From an uncultured Nitrososphaerota archaeon (lineage in GTDB: Archaea; Korarchaeota; Korarchaeia; Korarchaeales; Korarchaeaceae), in assembly GCA_964618805.1 (NCBI GenBank), contig CAZUBM010000010.1:1-23844 (forward strand): 23,844 bases of DNA, given 5' to 3'. A model generated the notes under the pieces. It worked only from the letters and a program-made list of their open reading frames with translations. It did not search any database and had not been told where the DNA came from. A program made the translations under genes and the position numbers. Below, piece after piece: positions 1,781 to 22,495 of the stretch (positions are counted from its first letter, which is position 1; the number at the start of each line of letters is the position of its first letter).

Positions 1781-4700
1781 TTAATTACGTCTCTCCAATT
1801 TTTCCTTAAGTTCCTTGTAAGTTTTTTCGCTTATTTCTCCTTTTCTATATCTTTCCTCCAACCTCTTCAGCTTTTCTGCAACATCAGCAGCCTTCTTAGG
1901 CTTCCGCCCCTTCAAGGCAATCGTGATCCCTGCTGCAGCAGCAACAGCTAGAGCAATGGCTATGTACTGAGGCTTAATCAACGTCCAGAAAGACCTTAAG
2001 GCCGAAGGCTTGGCATGGATCCAAGAGGTAATGTGCGGGTCCAGTGGATTTGGATCCTCCCCATCCGGCACCCCATCCCCATCTGTGTCCTGAGATTTTG
2101 AATTTGTGTGGAAGAATCCTTCTTCAATATCGTCTGGCACCCCATCCCCATCTGTGTCCGTCTGGTTTTCATGAGGCATTGGAGCTACCCTAACTAATAC
2201 AAAGTCTGGATAAGAATCTCTCTCCCCATCTGAAACTATCAGTTCTACAGGCCATGCCCCAACTGGGAAGGTGAGATTTGGAGTTGGCTCCGTAGAGACT
2301 CCTCCTCCCTCTAAGAAGTTCCCAACCCATCTATAGGTAAGAGATCTACCCAAAGGGGAGTAAGAACCTGTTCCATTTAAGATTACAGTTGCAGTACCGT
2401 TTGGTCCAGCCACCGCAAAGACATCCGGGCCTGCATCTGCCACTGGACCTTCAGAGCTTGGGGAGAGGTCAATGGTTTCGTCCCAGTGACCGTCGCCATC
2501 TTTGTCTATCATGATTCTCACCGTCTTAAGGTCGTCCCAGTTCGGAACTATCCTATGAATCTCTCCTGGGCCTATCGATAGGCCGTCTCTAGAGAATTCG
2601 AGAAGCCTATCGGGAAGTGTACAAACTAACTTTAGATCATAGCTGGCTTCCCTTAAACCATCGTTAGAAAGCTGCAGAAACTCCCCATTTGGATCTGTCT
2701 TTATGCCAAGCAAGTTGTCCTTCGGAAATCTAATTATCCTTAGAAAATATCTTCTGCCATAAAGATTCTCCCGGCTCATCTTCTCAAATTCCAAGAAGAA
2801 TGACTTTTCTCTGGACTTCGGTGAGAAGGAGATTGATAGGTTGCTGGGATCTAGCCCTATCATGTCGACAGATCCCGGTTCCGTTTCAACATTGCTGAAA
2901 GCAAGAAGGCCATCAGTACAAATCTCAGTTATCAGATTGTAAGTGCCTGAGGAATCTCCCACAATCTTGTGCAAATAAGTGTTATTTTCAGCTAGGAAGT
3001 ATAGTTCTGGAACTGGTTCTTCGTCCTTCACTCCTATCAATGGAATTCTTGCAGCGAGGGGTATCCCTGTGCTTGGATCCCAGTTCATCCATCCATCTTC
3101 GGTGTAGAAGAACCTCCCTTGAGAATCTTCTATTTGCTCGGTGTGCGCCGAACCAAACACGAGCTCTGCCAGAAGATCTAAGCCTATTTCCAGAAGATCA
3201 CCACGCGAAATACCATCTGGATTACCGGTGAGCAAATCCATGGGAATTGATCCTATTGGATGCCAAAACTCGCCGAGGGAGCCGCCCCAAACCTCTCCTC
3301 CACCTAGATCATACTTCCAACTGTAACCAAAGAGATGGGGTGTAAGATTAATTGTGCTTTTATGATCGGATCTCTCCATAAAGCGGAATGGTTTGTTTGG
3401 ATCGTAAACTTTGATGGCAATCTTTCCATCTGACAATTCCTCCAGATCATAGGCGACCATAGCATGTCCCTCTCTCCACGATTTGCAGATCAATACGATT
3501 ATTGGACTCTCCAGCTCCCCGTTTTTGTACGCCCTTACCCTTTCTATTAGCTCTTGGCATTGCCTTTGGCTGGGATCAATAGCCTCTCCGACGCCAATAA
3601 TATAGGTGTCGAGAAATCCTCCTCCCAGGGATTGCATCGAGTACTGCCATAAGTGGTTCCTACGAATGGCGTCCAACAGATCCGATCCGTGCATGGTATC
3701 ATAGTCAGGCCATCCGGCTTGGCGAGTTAACCAGTCCCAGTTCTCCCATGACAGGCCTTCTCTCACCTGTATGACGCCCTCGTGTATATCCCATCTGGTT
3801 TTACACATGCCAAAGCAGACACCATTCCTAGTAACTCCCGATAGCGCTAGCCAAGCGGTAAAAGCTATTGCCTGCGGGGCGCACTCAGGACATTCCGCCA
3901 ACGTTCCCAAAAAGCAGCAATCACTCTCGTCGAAGAAGTAGCACCACTCGTCCCAGGAGATTGGGCGCCATCCTTTGTTTACCATGGGCAAGCCAAAATC
4001 GTACCTGAACCTATATCTATGAACTGGAATCCAAACCTTTCGCACTAGTTCCACGTCCTCTCCAGGCCTTGCTCCCATTTTGATCGGAAGGCGTATAGTA
4101 AGCGTTCCGATAAGCGTAGAGACTCCTTCAGGGAAAGAGTAGGAGGAATCGTCTGGCATTTCAAGGTATAGCCACAGCGTGTCACCTACTGCAGCGTGAA
4201 TGCGCCTTTTCCTCAGTACTCTTAAATCCCTTGCATCTCCACTAACATCAAATCGAGACTGAATTCTATCTAGATCTTCTATCTCCTCCCTCGTTACCTT
4301 GAAGTTAAGCATGATATGTGACCAGTTTCTATTTGCGCCATATGATATTGGATAGCAGTAGACTCCTACATTTCTCATACCAGTTTCAGAGCCAATTGAA
4401 TCTTTAACATGAATATTAACATATTGGAAGCTACCAGTCGTAGCAGCCCTAATTGCTTCTTCCAAACTCGAGTTTTCATCAATAGATTCGATTATAATAC
4501 GAGAACCATCGAGGCGCCACCTGAGCGGTGGAACAAGGTCAAGGCTAACTGTGTAGGGAGGAACTCCGCCTATTATCTCGATATAACCGTGTTGAGGGGA
4601 ACAATAGAGAGGGTAATAGCCCCTCACATGCCTAGTCCAGTTATCCCAGCTCAAGCTCTTGGAAAAGAACGCCAAGTTGCCGAACAAGAGGCTTAGCTCT

Positions 4701-6922
4701 ACCTTTGGGAGGACCGTTATGCCAATCGTTTCCGTATCCCACATGCCTTTAGAATCCTCAACTGCAACCACCACTTCCCTGCTGAGTTCGGGTGTGGTAG
4801 GAGTTCCGGATATTATCCCTTCCCTTGAGAGCGCCAAGCCTTCTGGAAGTGACGTTTTGTTCGCCCAAGTATAAGGAGGAACTCCTCCATAAACGTGTAA
4901 GCCAGCTTCGAAGTGCTCTTCAGCCTTGGCTGTTATCTCAGTGGGAATTATCTCAGGTTTAGAGGGACTAAACCAGACTGGCCTGGGCGAATCTATGAAG
5001 GTCAGCCCAGGAGCTGGATGGCTTTCCATGCTGAAGGTGGTGACTTTCCCTAGGCTCCATCCGCGACCATAGAGGTCTACCACTTCGAGCTCAAAATCGT
5101 AAACATCAGGGCCTTGGCATGCGCTCTCAAAAACTATGAGAGGTCTATCTGGAGCCCAAGAAGGATTCATGTATGAGTAGTCTGAGCTTTCCTTCAGAAT
5201 CCTGATCTCTGATCCGTCTGGCCTCACAACTGCAAGCTTGTACCTATATCCAAGCTCCGCTCCTACGTAGACGGGTTTTGAAAAGGCGATCCACGTCCCA
5301 TCTGAGGACCATGAAGGATGAATCCCCTCAACTGGGGTTCCTTCTCTTGCTTCTATTATTGGAGAGATTGTGGAGCTATCTAAGTCGATAATCCAAAGGT
5401 AGAACTTTCCATCCCCCATCCTGTTGGAGGAAAAGACTACCTTCGATCCGTCTGGAGAAGGACATGGGTCTATGTCAACAAATTCGCCATCCGTGATCCT
5501 CGTCCCTCTGCCGCTTTCTAATCCTTGAACGAATAAATTAAAGGTATCTCCTGTACCGGACGAGTACACAACATACGGTTCCTCGAAAGGACCGCCACTT
5601 AAAGACACAGCGGGGCATATGTCAGGACGGTTGTTATTGGTGAGCCTTACCTCCCCTTCAGGACCTCGTAAATATATCTCAGTGCTTTCAATGCTCCCTT
5701 CCCACTTTACAAAGGCCAAGTAAGTCCCATCTGGGGTGTAATATGGCATGATCGCACCGATCTTCCTATCATCCTCCAAGCTAGCTGGAACAATACGAAC
5801 AATGGCCTCTCCATCCTCACTAGAAAGGTAAAGAGCGTTGGGCTCCGACAATGGACCTTCAGGGCGAGCTGTCTTGTTATAGGAGGAGAAGACGATGGCC
5901 CCGTTGCCGGGTTCAACTGCAGATGGACTTGGAGGAATTGGAGATGCTTCAGGTTTGGCTGTCAAGATCTTCTCCAAGCAATTGTTTTCCTCATCCGTTT
6001 CCTCAACATCTAACTTGGAATCAGTACAAACTTTCACCTCGTGTTGAGGTGGACTGGGTTCCAACGTGTATTCAAAACATCCATTGATCACTTGCCCTGG
6101 AGGCATCTCCCCAGTGAGGCTGATCTGATTCTCAGCTACCTTTATCCCGTCAACGTATAGGGCATTATAAAAGGCAGTTGCAGGTAAGCTAGCCTCTCCT
6201 GAGTTCCTAATTCTAAAGCAGATCTTATCCCCTTCCTGCCATAGATCTTCTACTACTAAGTCAGGGAGCTTCCTTTCTATAACTATCTGAGCTTCAGCCC
6301 ATGCTGCCCAGTCCTGACCTGAACTCTGTCCAGCATTGACATACAGGACGAAGTTTCCTTTTTTACCAGCTAAATAACCAAGATCTACTGTTATTGAATC
6401 AAGCTTACCATCATAGGTTGCTTTATGGCTGAAGATGGTATATTTGACAGGAGGGGCTAGCGCCCCTCTAAATTCTTCAAAGTAGACCTCAAAAGTGGCC
6501 CCATCAGTTCCAGTTGCGCCTAAAAGAAATCCTATATTGACCCTAAGATGAGCGTTTTGAGGCACCGTTATCTCGGGGTATCTGCCCAAGATCCAACCGT
6601 TGTTAACCCACTCAGGGTGTGTTTCTAAGACCCTTCCCCAGATGCTTCCATCTTCAAGTCTTGCGTTATATCGATAGAGAACGAAGCCCCTTTCATCCGT
6701 ATCACTCCCTGGAAAGGGCAGGTTTCCGGTTCCACTGCTCCATGACGCCTCAGATGCCTGATCTATGAAGTCATAGTATATCGGATCTCCAGAAGCTAAG
6801 ACAAAGCCTTGAACTAATGGCTGAAAAAACAAAAATAGAAGGAATAAGAGTAACGCAGCCTGAACTTTTTTCCTATTCGCCTTTACGCGGCCCTTAGATA
6901 AAGAAGGAGTATTTTTTGCCAA
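1781..6922 (-). CDS. Large multidomain surface protein: signal peptide, beta-sandwich, CARDB, TolB/PD40 beta-propeller, Ig-like, papain-like Cys protease-type domain, PKD-like, DTDGDG Ca-binding repeats, TM helix, SHOCT
   Basis: LPDLVV...VEETDEENN (CARDB); PSPDGSKVVFSSNR and PSWSSDGTWIAF (PD40); GGVPPYTW...LPEGLALSREGIISGTPT (Ig); GVCFGM/GHAMVAY/VYDPN; PVADAGPD; DTDGDGVPD x2; EKLKRLEERYRKGEISEKTYKELKEKL; TTG start with GAGGAG RBS. Confidence 0.9.
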   Translation of the reverse strand: MAKNTPSLSKGRVKANRKKVQAALLLFLLFLFFQPLVQGFVLASGDPIYYDFIDQASEASWSSGTGNLPFPGSDTDERGFVLYRYNARLEDGSIWGRVLETHPEWVNNGWILGRYPEITVPQNAHLRVNIGFLLGATGTDGATFEVYFEEFRGALAPPVKYTIFSHKATYDGKLDSITVDLGYLAGKKGNFVLYVNAGQSSGQDWAAWAEAQIVIERKLPDLVVEDLWQEGDKICFRIRNSGEASLPATAFYNALYVDGIKVAENQISLTGEMPPGQVINGCFEYTLEPSPPQHEVKVCTDSKLDVEETDEENNCLEKILTAKPEASPIPPSPSAVEPGNGAIVFSSYNKTARPEGPLSEPNALYLSSEDGEAIVRIVPASLEDDRKIGAIMPYYTPDGTYLAFVKWEGSIESTEIYLRGPEGEVRLTNNNRPDICPAVSLSGGPFEEPYVVYSSGTGDTFNLFVQGLESGRGTRITDGEFVDIDPCPSPDGSKVVFSSNRMGDGKFYLWIIDLDSSTISPIIEAREGTPVEGIHPSWSSDGTWIAFSKPVYVGAELGYRYKLAVVRPDGSEIRILKESSDYSYMNPSWAPDRPLIVFESACQGPDVYDFELEVVDLYGRGWSLGKVTTFSMESHPAPGLTFIDSPRPVWFSPSKPEIIPTEITAKAEEHFEAGLHVYGGVPPYTWANKTSLPEGLALSREGIISGTPTTPELSREVVVAVEDSKGMWDTETIGITVLPKVELSLLFGNLAFFSKSLSWDNWTRHVRGYYPLYCSPQHGYIEIIGGVPPYTVSLDLVPPLRWRLDGSRIIIESIDENSSLEEAIRAATTGSFQYVNIHVKDSIGSETGMRNVGVYCYPISYGANRNWSHIMLNFKVTREEIEDLDRIQSRFDVSGDARDLRVLRKRRIHAAVGDTLWLYLEMPDDSSYSFPEGVSTLIGTLTIRLPIKMGARPGEDVELVRKVWIPVHRYRFRYDFGLPMVNKGWRPISWDEWCYFFDESDCCFLGTLAECPECAPQAIAFTAWLALSGVTRNGVCFGMCKTRWDIHEGVIQVREGLSWENWDWLTRQAGWPDYDTMHGSDLLDAIRRNHLWQYSMQSLGGGFLDTYIIGVGEAIDPSQRQCQELIERVRAYKNGELESPIIVLICKSWREGHAMVAYDLEELSDGKIAIKVYDPNKPFRFMERSDHKSTINLTPHLFGYSWKYDLGGGEVWGGSLGEFWHPIGSIPMDLLTGNPDGISRGDLLEIGLDLLAELVFGSAHTEQIEDSQGRFFYTEDGWMNWDPSTGIPLAARIPLIGVKDEEPVPELYFLAENNTYLHKIVGDSSGTYNLITEICTDGLLAFSNVETEPGSVDMIGLDPSNLSISFSPKSREKSFFLEFEKMSRENLYGRRYFLRIIRFPKDNLLGIKTDPNGEFLQLSNDGLREASYDLKLVCTLPDRLLEFSRDGLSIGPGEIHRIVPNWDDLKTVRIMIDKDGDGHWDETIDLSPSSEGPVADAGPDVFAVAGPNGTATVILNGTGSYSPLGRSLTYRWVGNFLEGGGVSTEPTPNLTFPVGAWPVELIVSDGERDSYPDFVLVRVAPMPHENQTDTDGDGVPDDIEEGFFHTNSKSQDTDGDGVPDGEDPNPLDPHITSWIHAKPSALRSFWTLIKPQYIAIALAVAAAAGITIALKGRKPKKAADVAEKLKRLEERYRKGEISEKTYKELKEKLERRN
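2067..2159. repeat. Identical 24-nt direct repeat encoding DTDGDGVP twice
   Basis: GGCACCCCATCCCCATCTGTGTCC at 2067-2090 and 2136-2159. Confidence 0.9.
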
Positions 6923-7168: not shown

Positions 7169-7277
7169 TGCCGGGGGCGGGACTCGAACCCGCGACCTCC
7201 GGAATCCACCCATTTCGAGCCCGCAGATGCCGAAGGATTATGAGTCCGGCGCTCTAACCAGCCTGAGCTACCCCGGC
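7169..7277 (-). tRNA. tRNA-Met(CAT), elongator type, with a 34-nt intron; CCA not encoded
   Basis: Minus strand GCCGGGG TA GCTC AGGCTGGTTA GAGC G CCGGA CTCATAA [34 nt] TCCGG AGGTC GCGGG TTCGAGT CCCGC CCCCGGC A; all stems pair; pyrimidine/T tract downstream; G1-C72 argues against initiator. Confidence 0.95.
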
Positions 7278-7689: not shown

Positions 7690-9525
7690 ATGAAGAGGAT
7701 CTGGTTTAAGAAGATCCTTTCACTCTTGCTCTTACTTCTAATTCTGGTTCCTCAAATTGGAGTTTCTGCAGGACCTTCCGTTAGCTCGAGCATCTCCTCT
7801 TCCAGAAAAGTCATAAATCCAGGGCAATCAGTCAGCTTGTCTGCAAGCGCAAGGGCAAGGGACTGCAAGATAGGCTTTTTCGGAGTATATGGAGATGGAG
7901 AAGGCTGGCTGGTCTATAGAAACAACGTAGGGGGAATGAGCACTTCTTGGAGCGGGCTATGGCATCCTCCAAGGAGGCCTGGTACCTACACCGCTTATGT
8001 TAGTGTAACTGGAGTTGATGATAAGGGAAGGGTGGTCTGCTCAGACAAATCCCTTGTTAGTGTCAGGGTTAATGCCCCTCCTTCCGTTTCTCTGATTGCT
8101 GAGCCGGAAGTCGTTTACGAAGGGGATTATGTTTCAATTCAAGTTCACTCTGAGGACTCCGACGGTTCAATAACCGAGCTAACGGTGAAAATTGGAGATG
8201 AAACCCTCTATCAGGGACCTGAACCTAATTGGTCTGGGAGCTGGTGTACTAGCTCTCCAGGAAATTACACCATCGTCGCAATGGCCAGAGATAACAACGG
8301 TGCATGTTCTAGCACATCGAAGCTTGTTCAGGTGAAGAAAAAGGAAGAACAGACGCCCTCACCTATTCCATCCTCTACACCTTCTCCAACTCCTTCCCCT
8401 CCATCCTCATCGTCCACTACTTCAGAACCTTCCTCGGGGGAAGAGAAGAACCAACCTCCTCTTCTTTACATGGAAGTAAGACCCAGGGAAGTTTACTTGG
8501 GGGAAGAGGTAGAGATCTCTGTTCTTGCAAACGATTCAGATGGCTTTGTAGTTCGCCTGATCGTCCAAGCAGGTGAAGAGGTGCTTTACGATGGTCCAGC
8601 CTCGAAATGGAATGGAAGCTGGTTTCCAAGCTCCCCAGGAGCCTATAAAATAGTTTCAAGGGCCTTAGACGACTCTGGAAACTGGACGAATAAGTTCTTT
8701 TTGGTTAGGGTGAAGAGCGAGGGCTTAGGGGAGAACTCAGATCCCTCGATAGAGATATGGCTGAACTCAACTCAAGTAGTGGTTGGACAATCTATAGAGA
8801 TCATAGTTAGGGTTTTAGACCCAGATCCTGGCCAAAATCTGTTTATCAACGTTACTGGGGCTGTAGAAGAGTTTTTCATCGCTGAATCTGGCCAGCTGGT
8901 CGAGAGATCCTACGTAGTTATGCCGGGCCCCGGAAATCACTCCATTCTTGTGAGGGTCGATGACGGGAGCGGGGGGATTTCAGAGGCAAGAGCAAGCTTT
9001 TCGGTCCTTCAGAGGAACCACGATCCCTTCGTAGAGATAACTGTGAACCTGAGCAAGGGGAAGGCCGTTATAGGCGATGTCATACTCGTAGAGGTAAGGA
9101 GTTGGGATCCGGATCCAGACCAAATTGTTTTTGTCGAAATTTTAGGGGAGATCTCAGCCAGCTTTTGCTTTAACTCAAGCGAGGGAAATGTTACGAGAAG
9201 GTACTTGATAGTTGCGGTTGAGGAGGGGAACAAGTCGATAAAGGCAGTTGCAAGGGATAAGAGAAACGGAACCTCTTCGGCCCAAGTCCAGTTCGCCGTC
9301 TACAAGAAAGCCTGGTGGAAGCGCTTCCTTGAGTGGATAGATCCCTGGCCCGAAACTAAGCTTGAGGAGGTGATAATGAAGGTCAGGGAGTGCATCTCCC
9401 TCGGATACTCCGCTAAAGAGATGAAAAAGACCTTGACTGAGTTTCTGGACGGAGATTTCGAGTTCGAAGATATTGTCCTTGATATAGACGGGCTTAGGAA
9501 GGAAATGGTTGGAAAGTTGTTGTAG
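7690..9525 (+). CDS. Secreted protein with about five tandem Ig-like (PKD/Big-type) domains and an S/P-rich linker
   Basis: Signal peptide; repeated NxxP...(S)xDxD...(P)GxYxIxxxAxDxxG units; PSPIPSSTPSPTPSPPSSSS linker; no classical C-terminal TM helix. Confidence 0.85.
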   Translation: MKRIWFKKILSLLLLLLILVPQIGVSAGPSVSSSISSSRKVINPGQSVSLSASARARDCKIGFFGVYGDGEGWLVYRNNVGGMSTSWSGLWHPPRRPGTYTAYVSVTGVDDKGRVVCSDKSLVSVRVNAPPSVSLIAEPEVVYEGDYVSIQVHSEDSDGSITELTVKIGDETLYQGPEPNWSGSWCTSSPGNYTIVAMARDNNGACSSTSKLVQVKKKEEQTPSPIPSSTPSPTPSPPSSSSTTSEPSSGEEKNQPPLLYMEVRPREVYLGEEVEISVLANDSDGFVVRLIVQAGEEVLYDGPASKWNGSWFPSSPGAYKIVSRALDDSGNWTNKFFLVRVKSEGLGENSDPSIEIWLNSTQVVVGQSIEIIVRVLDPDPGQNLFINVTGAVEEFFIAESGQLVERSYVVMPGPGNHSILVRVDDGSGGISEARASFSVLQRNHDPFVEITVNLSKGKAVIGDVILVEVRSWDPDPDQIVFVEILGEISASFCFNSSEGNVTRRYLIVAVEEGNKSIKAVARDKRNGTSSAQVQFAVYKKAWWKRFLEWIDPWPETKLEEVIMKVRECISLGYSAKEMKKTLTEFLDGDFEFEDIVLDIDGLRKEMVGKLL

Positions 9526-19960: not shown

Positions 19961-21094
19961 ATGGACGAGAAAGACTTGACTTCCTTCTGCAGGGCTTTAA
20001 TAGGCACTGAAAGTCCTTCTGGAGAGGAAGGAGAGGTTGCAAAGATCATTGCAGATGAGATGAATAAGCTAGGATTCGATAGAGTCGAGATCGATGGCGT
20101 CGGAAATGTTATAGGCATCATTGAAGGATATTCTGATTCCACAATAGTTTTTGACGGTCATATGGACACGGTAGGGCCAGGTAATCTAGATTCGTGGCAA
20201 GTGGATCCTTTTTCTGCTGAGATAATTGATGATTGGATCGTGGGCAGAGGAGCCGTTGACATGAAGGGTTCCATTGCTGCAATGATCTATTCCGCATCAA
20301 AGCTTAAAGAAGTGAGAAATAACCTGTATTATGTTTTTGTGGTGCATGAAGAGGACCAAGAAGGCTTTGGCATAAAGTATTTCCTAGAGGAGAGGAAAAT
20401 AAAGCCTGATCTTGTGGTATTAGGGGAAGCTACAGGACTTAAAGTGGCGGTAGGTCACAGAGGGAGGGTTGAATTGCTCCTTAAGATATACGGTCGTGCA
20501 TCCCACTCTAGCATGCCAGATCTTGGTGAAAATGCCCTTTTGGAAGGTTGCAGGGTTCTCTTGAAGATAAGAGAAAATCAATACACTCTTCCGAGCCACC
20601 CAGTCCTTGGAAGGGCTAGCATAGCTCCCGTTGCCATGAAATGCTCTCCTGGTAAGATTCCTGTGATCCCTGATTGTTGTGAGATTCTTCTGGATAGGAG
20701 AACCATCCCTGGTGAATCCAAAGAGGATATCATCAGCTGGCTGAAGGGTTTCGTCCAGAAAGGGGAGATTCAGGTCAGGAGGAAGCTCGTTAAGTGTTAT
20801 ACGGGATACAAGCAGGAAGTTGAGGGTTATTTTCCAGCCTGGTACATGAATGGACCCTTTGCAAGGAGAGTAGCTAAGCTATTGGGTACTGAAATCACCG
20901 TGTGGAGGTTTAGCACAGATGGAGCCTATACCGCTGGAGAGGCTGGGCTCAGGACGATAGGATACGGACCTGGGAATCAGGAACTAGCACATTGTCCAAA
21001 TGAAAGAATAAGCCTAAAAAACCTAATTAAAAGCGTTGATGGGTATGTAAAAATCGCTAATCTGGACATTATGTCGCTTTTCAGTGAAGATTAG
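19961..21094 (+). CDS. M20/M25/M40 family metallo-hydrolase (YgeY/ArgE/DapE-like)
   Basis: DGHMDTV, GRGAVDMKG, HEE, LGEAT, GHRGR, GRASHSS, STDG, GPG...AHCPNE. Confidence 0.92.
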   Translation: MDEKDLTSFCRALIGTESPSGEEGEVAKIIADEMNKLGFDRVEIDGVGNVIGIIEGYSDSTIVFDGHMDTVGPGNLDSWQVDPFSAEIIDDWIVGRGAVDMKGSIAAMIYSASKLKEVRNNLYYVFVVHEEDQEGFGIKYFLEERKIKPDLVVLGEATGLKVAVGHRGRVELLLKIYGRASHSSMPDLGENALLEGCRVLLKIRENQYTLPSHPVLGRASIAPVAMKCSPGKIPVIPDCCEILLDRRTIPGESKEDIISWLKGFVQKGEIQVRRKLVKCYTGYKQEVEGYFPAWYMNGPFARRVAKLLGTEITVWRFSTDGAYTAGEAGLRTIGYGPGNQELAHCPNERISLKNLIKSVDGYVKIANLDIMSLFSED

Positions 21095-21109
21095 CTTATC
21101 AAGTACCAT

Positions 21110-21121
21110 AAAGTTTAAGTA
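21110..21121 (+). promoter_or_regulatory. BRE/TATA box for the candidate ncRNA
   Basis: AAAG-TTTAAGTA centred about 26 bp before G21144, between two convergent CDSs. Confidence 0.6.
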
Positions 21122-21143
21122 TGGGTTTGTATGAAATTCACTT

Positions 21144-21300
21144 GATCCACGCGGGAGGAAGGGCCTTAAAACCTTAATGTGTTCAGATTATGCCAAGGAT
21201 CATTTGAATGTAGTTAACCCCTGGGGCCCCAAGGGTTGGGAAGGATAGGATTATAACGCAAAGACCTTTGCACTTGATCGCCCCTCAAACCGCGTGGATC
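21144..21300 (+). ncRNA. Candidate structured non-coding RNA (~157 nt), family not recognised
   Basis: Perfect 11-bp 5'/3' stem GATCCACGCGG/CCGCGTGGATC extended by GAG/CTC and GGGC/GCCC; three internal hairpins, two with G-U pairs; upstream TATA; downstream pyrimidine tract. Confidence 0.65.
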
Positions 21301-21307
21301 TTTCTCC

Positions 21308-22495
21308 TTATGAATCTCTTTTGATAAGGGGTAAAGATGCATTTATCGCCTCAAGATCATTCGATATCAAGATCATCGTACTTGCTTCACTGACGTGAAG
21401 GAAAACATATCTATCGATGCAGTACCACACTCCGGATGGTAGCCTATCCCCTCTTTTCTCCAGGAGTTCCTGAAAAGATCCTGCGAACTGGGTGGCATCT
21501 TGCTCAGAATCCCAAACTATGACCCATTCTACCATAAATGCGTCTTCATTCATGTAAAGCGTCAAGTTGTCACCGTTCCACCCTTTTGCTGCTTCTGCAG
21601 CCCTCTCCTCGGAAAGAGAGGTTGAAAGGATCGTGAGAATAAAGTGTTCTCCCATCCTATCGGACTTTGCCCTTTTCCACCCTCTCTCCTCTAAGGGAGG
21701 AGCATCTGGAACCACGAATCCCTCATATGCAAAGTATTTCTCAGGATGTAGTATCTGTTCTGTCGTATTAGGTGGGTTTTTCAGGGCGGAGTTCACCATA
21801 TCCCACCCACCAGCTTCAAACAAGCCTCTTACGAACGATCTTCCGTATTTGTAGGGAAAAAGCCAGACCTCCTCTATCGGGGAGTATGACATGTTGGATA
21901 GATCTCCTAATTGGATCCCAAAGTGGTAGAGAACGAACTTCTCTGCAGTTATCAATGCATCACCTTCTATCAAAGCGGATCTGGCCTGTCTTCCATCGTG
22001 GGTCGACCTTTCAGGGGGATTAAAGTGGTGACGCTGTATTATGTGAGTAATTTCGTGGGCCAATATCTCAAGGGCCTTGAGCTCGTCGCCTGGGTCAAAG
22101 AACTCCTTCGTAAGGTATACCTTATCCCCGACAGCTGCTGCCATGGTCGCTTTAAACTGGTTTATCCTTATCTCAGTAAGGTTAGCCTCAGAAGGGAGGA
22201 GGAATAGAGCCTTATAGATTATTTCTTCGTAAGAGATCTCTTCTCTTTGAGATTCTGCATATGGAAGGGCCCAATTCTCTTCTATCCAGGATGTCGTGAC
22301 GATCTCTATGCTGATATCAGTTTTGGGGCTAAGACCCCTGACTTCCCCTACCTCCTCTAGAACTACCTCCAGCTGATCCTGAGCCAGTTTAAAGTACTCT
22401 TTATCAGGTGATTTGAGCAAGGAGTAAGCTGCGAATGAAGCCATTACAACTAGAGCTGCTAAAAGGACTAGAAAAACTCTAATCTCCTTTCTCAT
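21308..22495 (-). CDS. Membrane-anchored HEXXH zincin-like surface protein (Hvo_1808-like)
   Basis: N-terminal hydrophobic anchor; EVRGL, LAHEITHIIQ, ALIEGDA, FPYKYG, PPNTTEQILHPEKY, AAKGWNGD, WDSEQDATQF. Confidence 0.85.
   Translation of the reverse strand: MRKEIRVFLVLLAALVVMASFAAYSLLKSPDKEYFKLAQDQLEVVLEEVGEVRGLSPKTDISIEIVTTSWIEENWALPYAESQREEISYEEIIYKALFLLPSEANLTEIRINQFKATMAAAVGDKVYLTKEFFDPGDELKALEILAHEITHIIQRHHFNPPERSTHDGRQARSALIEGDALITAEKFVLYHFGIQLGDLSNMSYSPIEEVWLFPYKYGRSFVRGLFEAGGWDMVNSALKNPPNTTEQILHPEKYFAYEGFVVPDAPPLEERGWKRAKSDRMGEHFILTILSTSLSEERAAEAAKGWNGDNLTLYMNEDAFMVEWVIVWDSEQDATQFAGSFQELLEKRGDRLPSGVWYCIDRYVFLHVSEASTMILISNDLEAINASLPLIKRDS

Follow-up and report, generated by a model that had tools for sequence, protein, structure and literature searches.

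A conserved intergenic element with a strict bulge-helix-bulge motif may be a gene for a small circular RNA in an uncultured archaeon

The window analyzed here is a stretch of 23,844 nucleotides (nt), positions 1-23844 of contig C10 (CAZUBM010000010.1) in the metagenome-assembled genome (MAG) of an uncultured archaeon, designated G000 (2.18 Mb in 62 contigs, 93.7% complete, 3.4% contamination). Within the 213-bp spacer between two convergent genes (21095-21307) we found an element on the plus strand in which an 11-bp helix runs directly into a strict bulge-helix-bulge (BHB) motif. The reading that we favor, at about even odds, is a dedicated gene: its transcript would be cut at 21160/21161 and 21288/21289, and the excised piece ligated into a circular RNA of ~128 nt. 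The case is made by the motif itself, its uniqueness in the genome, its conservation, a handedness that specifies one strand, the spacing of a promoter and the presence of genes for both processing enzymes. From these we infer transcription, cleavage, circularization and any function of the product.

A preliminary description of this DNA had proposed an independently transcribed, multi-branch RNA. The features on which it drew (the 213-bp gap, a TATA box, a terminal stem, GAG/CTC and GGGC/GCCC pairings, three hairpins and a pyrimidine tract) all lie where it placed them. It had the stem continue by GAG/CTC and GGGC/GCCC past bulges; judged from its sequence, this arrangement is a canonical 3-4-3 BHB, which had been missed. 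Because the BHB has been recognized, the predicted product shifts from a linear RNA of ~160 nt to an excised, probably circular RNA of ~128 nt.

Results

A strict BHB motif at the end of an 11-bp helix

The outer (leader) helix is formed by GATCCACGCGG (21144-21154), whose first nucleotide, G21144, is the predicted transcription start, and CCGCGTGGATC in the trailer (21290-21300), a pairing indicated by sequence, fold and invariance. It continues into a central helix of exactly 4 bp, all of them Watson-Crick (GAGG, 21155-21158, with CCUC, 21283-21286), which is set between two 3-nt bulges, AAG at 21159-21161 and AAA at 21287-21289, and is followed by an inner helix of GGC (21162-21164) with GCC (21280-21282). 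Helices therefore flank the BHB on both sides, the outer one of 11 bp and the inner one of 3 bp, and the inner helix is longer in two homologues, G002 and G004. In the passages cited here, the BHB is defined as a 4-bp helix between two 3-nt bulges (PMC7714728, PMC4090602), and the strict form is the motif that archaeal splicing endonucleases recognize (PMC7714728, PMC4090602, PMC4731332). Since the dimensions at the locus agree with this definition, we counted it as a strict hBHBh' motif.

Read along the plus strand, the outer helix gives way to the central helix, then to a bulge and then to the inner helix, as in pre-tRNAs; on the minus strand this order is mirrored. As a control we used the introns that aragorn calls in the tRNA genes of G000, where the strict motif occurred in canonical order in 5/18 and in mirror order in 0/18. 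The TATA box described below and the canonical handedness are thus on the same (plus) strand. Cleavage sites were placed between the second and third nucleotides of each bulge, a rule taken from canonical tRNA geometry (PMC4090602, in the part cited), which reproduced the aragorn intron length in four of the five strict tRNA controls. By this rule, the predicted cuts fall at A21160/G21161 and A21288/A21289, and the predicted excised RNA would span 21161-21288 (128 nt, 124-125 nt in the homologues) and would probably be circularized by RtcB. AAA is the 3' bulge at the locus and also in three of the five strict tRNA-intron BHBs of this genome.

We scanned all of G000 for such motifs, allowing Watson-Crick pairs only, spans of up to ~520 nt and inner helices of at least 3 bp. 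Outer helices of 6 bp were found at 41 sites, of 7 bp at 10, of 8 bp at 4, and of 11 bp at a single site, the locus; in five composition-preserving block shuffles the outer helix never exceeded 9 bp. With the BHB shape imposed and stacking energy as the criterion, the locus came first of 1012 sites at -29.8 kcal/mol, compared with -23.3 kcal/mol for the runner-up and -22.9 kcal/mol for the best site in four shuffles. Other BHB-like sites in G000 (on C38, C1, C12, C37 and C26) had no Rfam match at E ≤ 0.1 and were treated as chance occurrences.

Promoter, terminator and processing enzymes

The putative promoter (21108-21121, plus strand) consists of an A-rich stretch resembling a B recognition element and the TATA box TTTAAGTA (21114-21121); its assignment draws on sequence, spacing and conservation. 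The TATA box begins at -30 relative to G21144, which is also the modal start at the tRNA genes of G000. Taking as a match at least 7/8 positions of a TATA consensus, we found a TATA box upstream of 16 of 45 tRNA genes, 10 of them starting at -31 to -29; across the genome, a 24-nt window would contain one by chance with a probability of ~2.6%. The distance from TATA box to start is identical in G002 and G004, and 12 of 14 positions of the TATA region are conserved in G002, which supports the earlier proposal that the element has its own promoter. Downstream of the trailer, a short pyrimidine/T tract (21301-21307) ending 1 nt before the stop codon of the neighboring gene is a possible weak archaeal terminator, and transcription would end there.

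Both enzymes that the predicted processing would call for are encoded in G000. The splicing endonuclease gene is a 372-amino-acid (aa) open reading frame (ORF) with two tRNA_int_endo matches (61.7 and 44.2 bits; C28:11190-12011, plus strand), and the RtcB ligase gene, on contig C12, encodes 483 aa (587 bits). The endonuclease is a single fused ORF of two-unit or larger architecture, not separate alpha and beta subunits.

Conservation and distribution

In a BLAST search of 61 genomes, full-length homologues were found only in G002 and G004, members of the same genus, at 76% identity. Comparing G000 with G002, the outer helix and BHB are identical at 42 of 43 positions, whereas identity is 54.5% in the 22-nt spacer between TATA box and start, 65.8% in the internal 115 nt, and 59.5% and 51.0% at third codon positions of the two flanking genes. 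Neither the bulge nucleotides nor the 4-bp helix vary more than the outer helix. All 26 of the pairs tested, which cover the outer, central and inner helices and a GC-rich hairpin (21216-21237), are unchanged in five sequences. This hairpin (AACCC-C-UGG, GGCC loop, CCA-A-GGGUU) keeps its eight pairs in 5/5 sequences, is a perfect 22-bp palindrome in G002 and G004, and is retained in folds at 75°C. The only other conserved internal parts are some blocks of the AU-rich 5' linker (21177-21215), which alignments place at 21177-21190, 21197-21202 and 21211-21215; folding at 60-75°C predicts that this linker is mostly single-stranded at high temperature.

Contigs from two DNA sequencing runs, X6 and X7, span the locus at ~93-95% identity. 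Among the differences listed for them, A21149G in the X6 contig gives a G.U pair with U21295, which is possible on the plus strand only, and G21119T in both contigs changes the TATA box to its form in G002. The DNA runs that contain the locus are mostly hydrothermal-vent metagenomes; none of the 11 runs listed is recorded as RNA, and the DNA contigs show no joints.

Overall, three of the five genomes of one genus and a small number of metagenome contigs carry the element, in every case between these convergent genes; G002, for instance, keeps the order of M20 hydrolase gene, element and HEXXH gene. A covariance model built from three sequences (R1) found nothing further among 36 genomes of the family or 43 of the phylum. 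A two-block pattern matched four stretches in the genome_contigs collection, two of them true (L035, Nitrososphaerota archaeon; L036, Thermoproteota archaeon) and two due to chance, and eight in metagenome_contigs, where L040 and L041 are true and almost identical to the G004 copy and the other six have no model match. The same pattern had 0 matches in viral_contigs, and on this ground we rejected a viral or proviral origin. Within G000 the element is single-copy: 2.18 Mb hold one full-length copy, and the other seven matches are at most 22 nt long with E of at least 0.78. A miniature inverted-repeat transposable element or other dispersed repeat, which the preliminary description had raised as an alternative that many copies would indicate, is therefore ruled out.

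Comparison with known RNA families

At gathering score, the only Rfam match in the window is an intron-bearing tRNA (7169-7277), and nothing is matched at the locus. At E ≤ 10 the matches are at chance level, the best being NPPA-AS1_3 at the locus (12.5 bits, E 2.3) and SNORA29 at the G004 copy (14.7 bits, E 6.7). Rfam models cannot score a permuted match as a whole. The earlier statements that the family is unrecognized and that the RNA is not a tRNA, SRP or RNase P RNA are in agreement with these and the following searches.

Several identities were tried and rejected. RNase P RNA is encoded elsewhere (C23:29427-29694, 131.6 bits), with no type-T match, as is 5S rRNA (C5:38466-38587). Aragorn run on the doubled excised sequences of four homologues called 0 genes, which argues against a permuted tRNA. 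For signal recognition particle (SRP) RNA, there was no Archaea_SRP match at E ≤ 10 in G000 or at the locus, and an nhmmer profile of the relatives' SRP RNAs found only a match of E 7.1 elsewhere in G000. Two small ORFs, one of 18 codons from 21122 and one of 23 codons inside the RNA, are both broken by early stops in G002, leaving no conserved ORF. By eye, we saw no C/D or H/ACA (ACA) boxes of the consensus form. The conserved blocks have complements in G000 about as often as expected by chance (for a 14-nt block with at most one mismatch, 2 non-self complements against 0.7 expected), and genome-wide a perfect complement exists only in the strand just past the stop codon of the HEXXH gene. 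Finally, the titles and abstracts of literature on BHB-dependent circular noncoding RNAs (ncRNAs) and on circular RNA in one candidate phylum contained no match to the element.

Folding

Folding energy, by itself, is modest and lacks strand specificity. RNAfold gave -56.8 kcal/mol for the plus strand (z -2.13, 5/200 shuffles as good) and -59.1 kcal/mol for the minus strand (z -2.97, 2/200 shuffles as good). The G.U variant of X6 and the handedness of the BHB do point to the plus strand, whereas the RNAfold z-scores show no preference for that strand.

Neighboring genes and other features of the window

The plus-strand ORF upstream (19961-21094) matches Peptidase_M20 and belongs to the YgeY family (346 bits). 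YgeY is a family of hydrolases described as "selenium metabolism-linked", and this gene scores above its cut-off. On another contig, aragorn calls a tRNA-SeC gene (C3:42624-42750, plus strand) with a 49-nt intron and a strict BHB at its borders. The converging minus-strand ORF (21308-22495) encodes a HEXXH protein with a weak eCIS_core match and weak similarity to the Hvo_1808 surface-protein family (122.8 bits, below the family cut-off). It is confined to the genus (4/36 genomes of the family).

The tRNA gene of the window (7169-7277, minus strand) has the anticodon CAU and a 34-nt intron. It scores 61.1 bits with Rfam and is also called by aragorn with intron search; a separate tRNA-gene search returned 0 genes and so missed it. 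Under the strict BHB filter, its intron site has no 3-4-3 motif. Genes for large surface-type proteins flank it: at 1781-6922 (minus strand), a 1713-aa protein with PD40, CARDB and He_PIG domains, and at 7690-9525 (plus strand), a 611-aa protein with PKD and Big domains.

By inspection, we saw GATC four times in the 157-nt element (21144-21300) of G000, at 21144, 21198, 21276 and 21297, where a sequence of this size would be expected to have ~0.6; two of these mark the ends of the inverted repeat, and G002 also has four. The 16S rRNA gene lies at a contig end (C27:57-824, minus strand) and aligns with its model only over model positions 4-751, as three segments with gaps of ~5-20 nt between them. 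Its 3' half and processing stem are unassembled, and G000 consequently offers no rRNA BHB for comparison.

The SRP system in the family

Genomes of five genera of the family (f1) were compared: g1, which includes G000, and g2 to g5, with g2 genomes up to 97% complete. Archaea_SRP RNA was matched in 9/10 g3 and 4/4 g5 genomes, in 1/5 of g1 and 0/5 of g2, and in g4 by a 22-bit match only (G007). The single g1 match, in G003, is on a 3-kb contig without a counterpart in congeners. Similarly, the GTPase domain shared by SRP54 and FtsY was found in 21/21 g3 and 4/4 g5 genomes (25/25) versus 0/5 in g1, 0/5 in g2 and 0/1 in g4 (0/11). For the SRP54 M domain, the counts were 21/21 in g3, 4/4 in g5, 0/5 in g2 and 0/1 in g4, with no genuine hit in g1; the one g1 match (18.8 bits, in G000) is spurious, lying within a 400-aa membrane protein that is not SRP54. 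SecY was detected in 19/21 g3, 4/4 g5, 4/5 g1, 5/5 g2 and 1/1 g4 genomes, that is, in 10/11 over g1, g2 and g4. A tblastn search of G000 with g3 SRP54 gave nothing at E 1e-3, while a neighboring gene found its orthologue at ~47-48% identity. SRP19 was also not found in G000, with a model whose control misses Sulfolobus too. Judged by these searches, SRP54, FtsY and SRP RNA are undetectable in three genera (g1, g2 and g4), barring, for the RNA, the G003 contig and the 22-bit G007 match. A literature search on SRP54 absence turned up no report of archaea without it. If real, this pattern would represent a clade-level loss of a near-universal pathway.

Discussion

Proposed processing and known BHB-dependent circles

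We suggest the following course of events. Transcription would start at about G21144 from the TATA box at 21114-21121, and the 17-nt leader would pair with the trailer as the 11-bp helix running into the canonical BHB. The splicing endonuclease would then cut both bulges, at 21160/21161 and 21288/21289, and RtcB would close the excised 128-nt piece into a circle; the short flanking pieces, which it would join to each other, would leave a disposable hairpin of ~30 nt. We assign the closing step to RtcB on the model of tRNA introns, pre-rRNAs and the SRP RNA of Thermoproteus. The resulting circle would have two GC-rich helices, a GGGC/GCCC stem closing the junction and the hairpin at 21216-21237, connected by two AU-rich linkers, with the ligation junction in the 5-nt loop that closes the GGGC/GCCC stem. 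As to function, a heat-stable protein-binding or antisense RNA would be our guess.

The closest known system is the permuted SRP RNA of Thermoproteus: its gene has a TATA box, the 23-nt leader forms a BHB with the trailer, the endonuclease cleaves the transcript and the product is a circle (PMC4731332). In T. tenax and T. uzoniensis, as proposed for our locus, this is a stand-alone intergenic gene with a short leader/trailer BHB, and there the TATA box is ~26 nt upstream of the start (PMC4731332). Cleavage and circularity have been shown for Thermoproteus and are only predicted here (PMC4731332). Furthermore, the Thermoproteus product is a recognizable permuted SRP RNA that binds SRP19 and SRP54, whereas the predicted RNA here is 128 nt long and has no similarity to SRP RNA, and SRP54, FtsY and SRP19 are undetectable in G000.

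Archaeal tRNA introns have in common with the locus the hBHBh' signal and excision followed by circularization, which at the locus is a prediction (PMC4090602). They differ in that the "exons" here would be a leader of ~17 nt and a trailer of 12-17 nt, with no tRNA. The tRNA-Trp intron that contains a C/D box small RNA (sRNA) illustrates that an excised piece may have a function of its own as RNA (PMC4090602). Endonuclease substrates other than tRNAs are few in the sources cited, namely rRNA precursors, one or two mRNAs and the permuted SRP RNA of Thermoproteus (PMC4731332, PMC7714728). Circular pre-16S and pre-23S rRNA intermediates and the BHB intron in the 5' untranslated region (UTR) of Haloferax HVO_1309 likewise combine a BHB, the endonuclease and a ligase to give circles from non-tRNA transcripts, and a long processing helix with a BHB is common to these systems and the locus (PMC7714728). 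However, they serve rRNA or mRNA processing, while at our locus a small gene appears to be dedicated to the excised piece, its only product. Sequencing of circular RNAs in Sulfolobus found circular C/D box RNAs, RNase P RNA and unknowns, and so small archaeal ncRNAs do occur as circles, some of them of unknown function (PMC3326292); for our element the circle is a prediction. The terms "BHB" and "bulge-helix-bulge" are absent from the main text of that paper, and we see no sequence relationship to the element (PMC3326292). The C/D box circles are said, in the part cited, to depend on a different ligase (PMC9014305).

Alternative explanations

A number of observations weigh against a processed circular RNA. 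The minimum free energy (MFE) structure from RNAfold is in another register, with a 3x3 internal loop, at -55.6 kcal/mol compared with -52.7 kcal/mol for the BHB register at 37°C; at 75°C, the values are -16.7 and -16.1 kcal/mol, a gap of 0.6. So little separates the two registers in these models that the comparison also counts in favor of the BHB. A loose scan, in which G.U pairs and spans up to 3.5 kb were allowed, gave outer helices of at least 11 bp at 90 of 7736 hits. The motif is exceptional only under strict or energy scoring; helix length alone is not. In addition, given that 5/18 tRNA introns pass, either the strict filter or the aragorn calls are imperfect. The GC content of the internal region is 45-48% versus 66% in a G000 tRNA, and the terminator is weak, with only three consecutive T residues. 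Of the three internal hairpins, two lack conservation, with mismatches in G002 at hairpin 1 (21179-21211) and a 6-nt deletion at hairpin 3 (21258-21271); the proposed multi-branch architecture finds no support in this comparison, and neither does a repeated 5' segment, CCTTAA..CCTTAA, which had been suggested as a possible guide. Homologues for the suggested covariation analysis were obtained from G002 and G004, but without variation in the tested pairs, covariation is uninformative (five sequences, representing only ~3 lineages).

The distribution adds to these points. G001, the most divergent congener, has the same flanking genes with a decayed remnant between them, which lacks the helix (fold z +0.61). 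In this syntenic spacer (L053:1318-1488, on G001 contig C13), only GGAGGA and CCTCAAACCGCG are left, the latter being the only long block to survive, and the TATA box and central hairpin are lost. From its decayed copy, the element is, it would seem, dispensable in G001; on the evidence of this remnant, the RNA is either dispensable or recently gained.

Taking these points into account, we considered three other explanations. The element could be an independently transcribed, structured sRNA of ~160 nt that stays linear, its terminal helix protecting the ends and its BHB-like geometry coincidental or unused. The promoter and the conservation would fit such an sRNA, and the fold in the non-BHB register is 2.9 kcal/mol more stable at 37°C. 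It is nonetheless difficult to see as coincidence that an exact 3-4-3 motif of the right handedness beside an 11-bp helix is the top site in 2.18 Mb, beyond all shuffles, or that the bulges and 4-bp helix are held as constant as the outer helix when most of the RNA body is only 65.8% identical. We consider a linear sRNA unlikely, though it deserves serious attention. It is also conceivable that there is no RNA gene, and that the 11-bp inverted repeat and the 22-bp palindrome are protein sites at the DNA level, a recombination relic, or a bidirectional terminator or 3'-UTR structure. The outer helix is kept as sequence, without compensatory change, which would also fit a DNA-level or protein-recognition role; the minus strand has a fold z-score no worse than that of the plus strand; G002 and G004 have a perfect palindrome as their central hairpin; and 7 nt separate the element from the stop codon of the HEXXH gene and 50 nt from that of the M20 gene. 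Yet a conserved TATA box at tRNA-like spacing marks one strand, the BHB handedness and the G.U variant are strand-specific, the element is a single-copy sequence and no mobile repeat, and archaeal transcription termination is not known to require hairpins. This explanation we find improbable.

Lastly, the locus could be what remains of a mobile BHB-type intron, left behind in a short hairpin "exon" and spliced with neither product functional. BHB introns are believed to move as DNA in some archaea (PMC4090602), and the narrow distribution and the decay seen in G001 would be compatible with such a history. Against it stand the absence of any similar sequence elsewhere in G000, tRNA introns included, the promoter that the element carries of its own, and the strong purifying selection on the processing signal and internal hairpin across lineages. 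Of a relic we are very doubtful.

Implications

As a conserved element the locus is real, and its processing into a circular RNA is predicted from sequence. BHB-dependent circles are already known; what would be new is a small gene that stands by itself and gives rise to a circle outside the recognized families, for which we found no precedent in the literature as far as it was covered. That it represents a new kind of archaeal gene, a promoter-driven cassette solely for a small circular ncRNA of no known family acting as a heat-stable regulator or ribonucleoprotein scaffold, is a proposal we put a little short of an even chance. The biological reach is probably narrow because the element occurs in one genus only and is dispensable in one member. 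If the proposal is true, the cassette would be a natural counterpart of engineered BHB systems for circular RNA expression and a compact natural template for such expression. It would also extend the substrate list of the archaeal splicing endonuclease, and would suggest that motif scans could find "hidden" BHB-flanked RNA genes in uncultured archaea.

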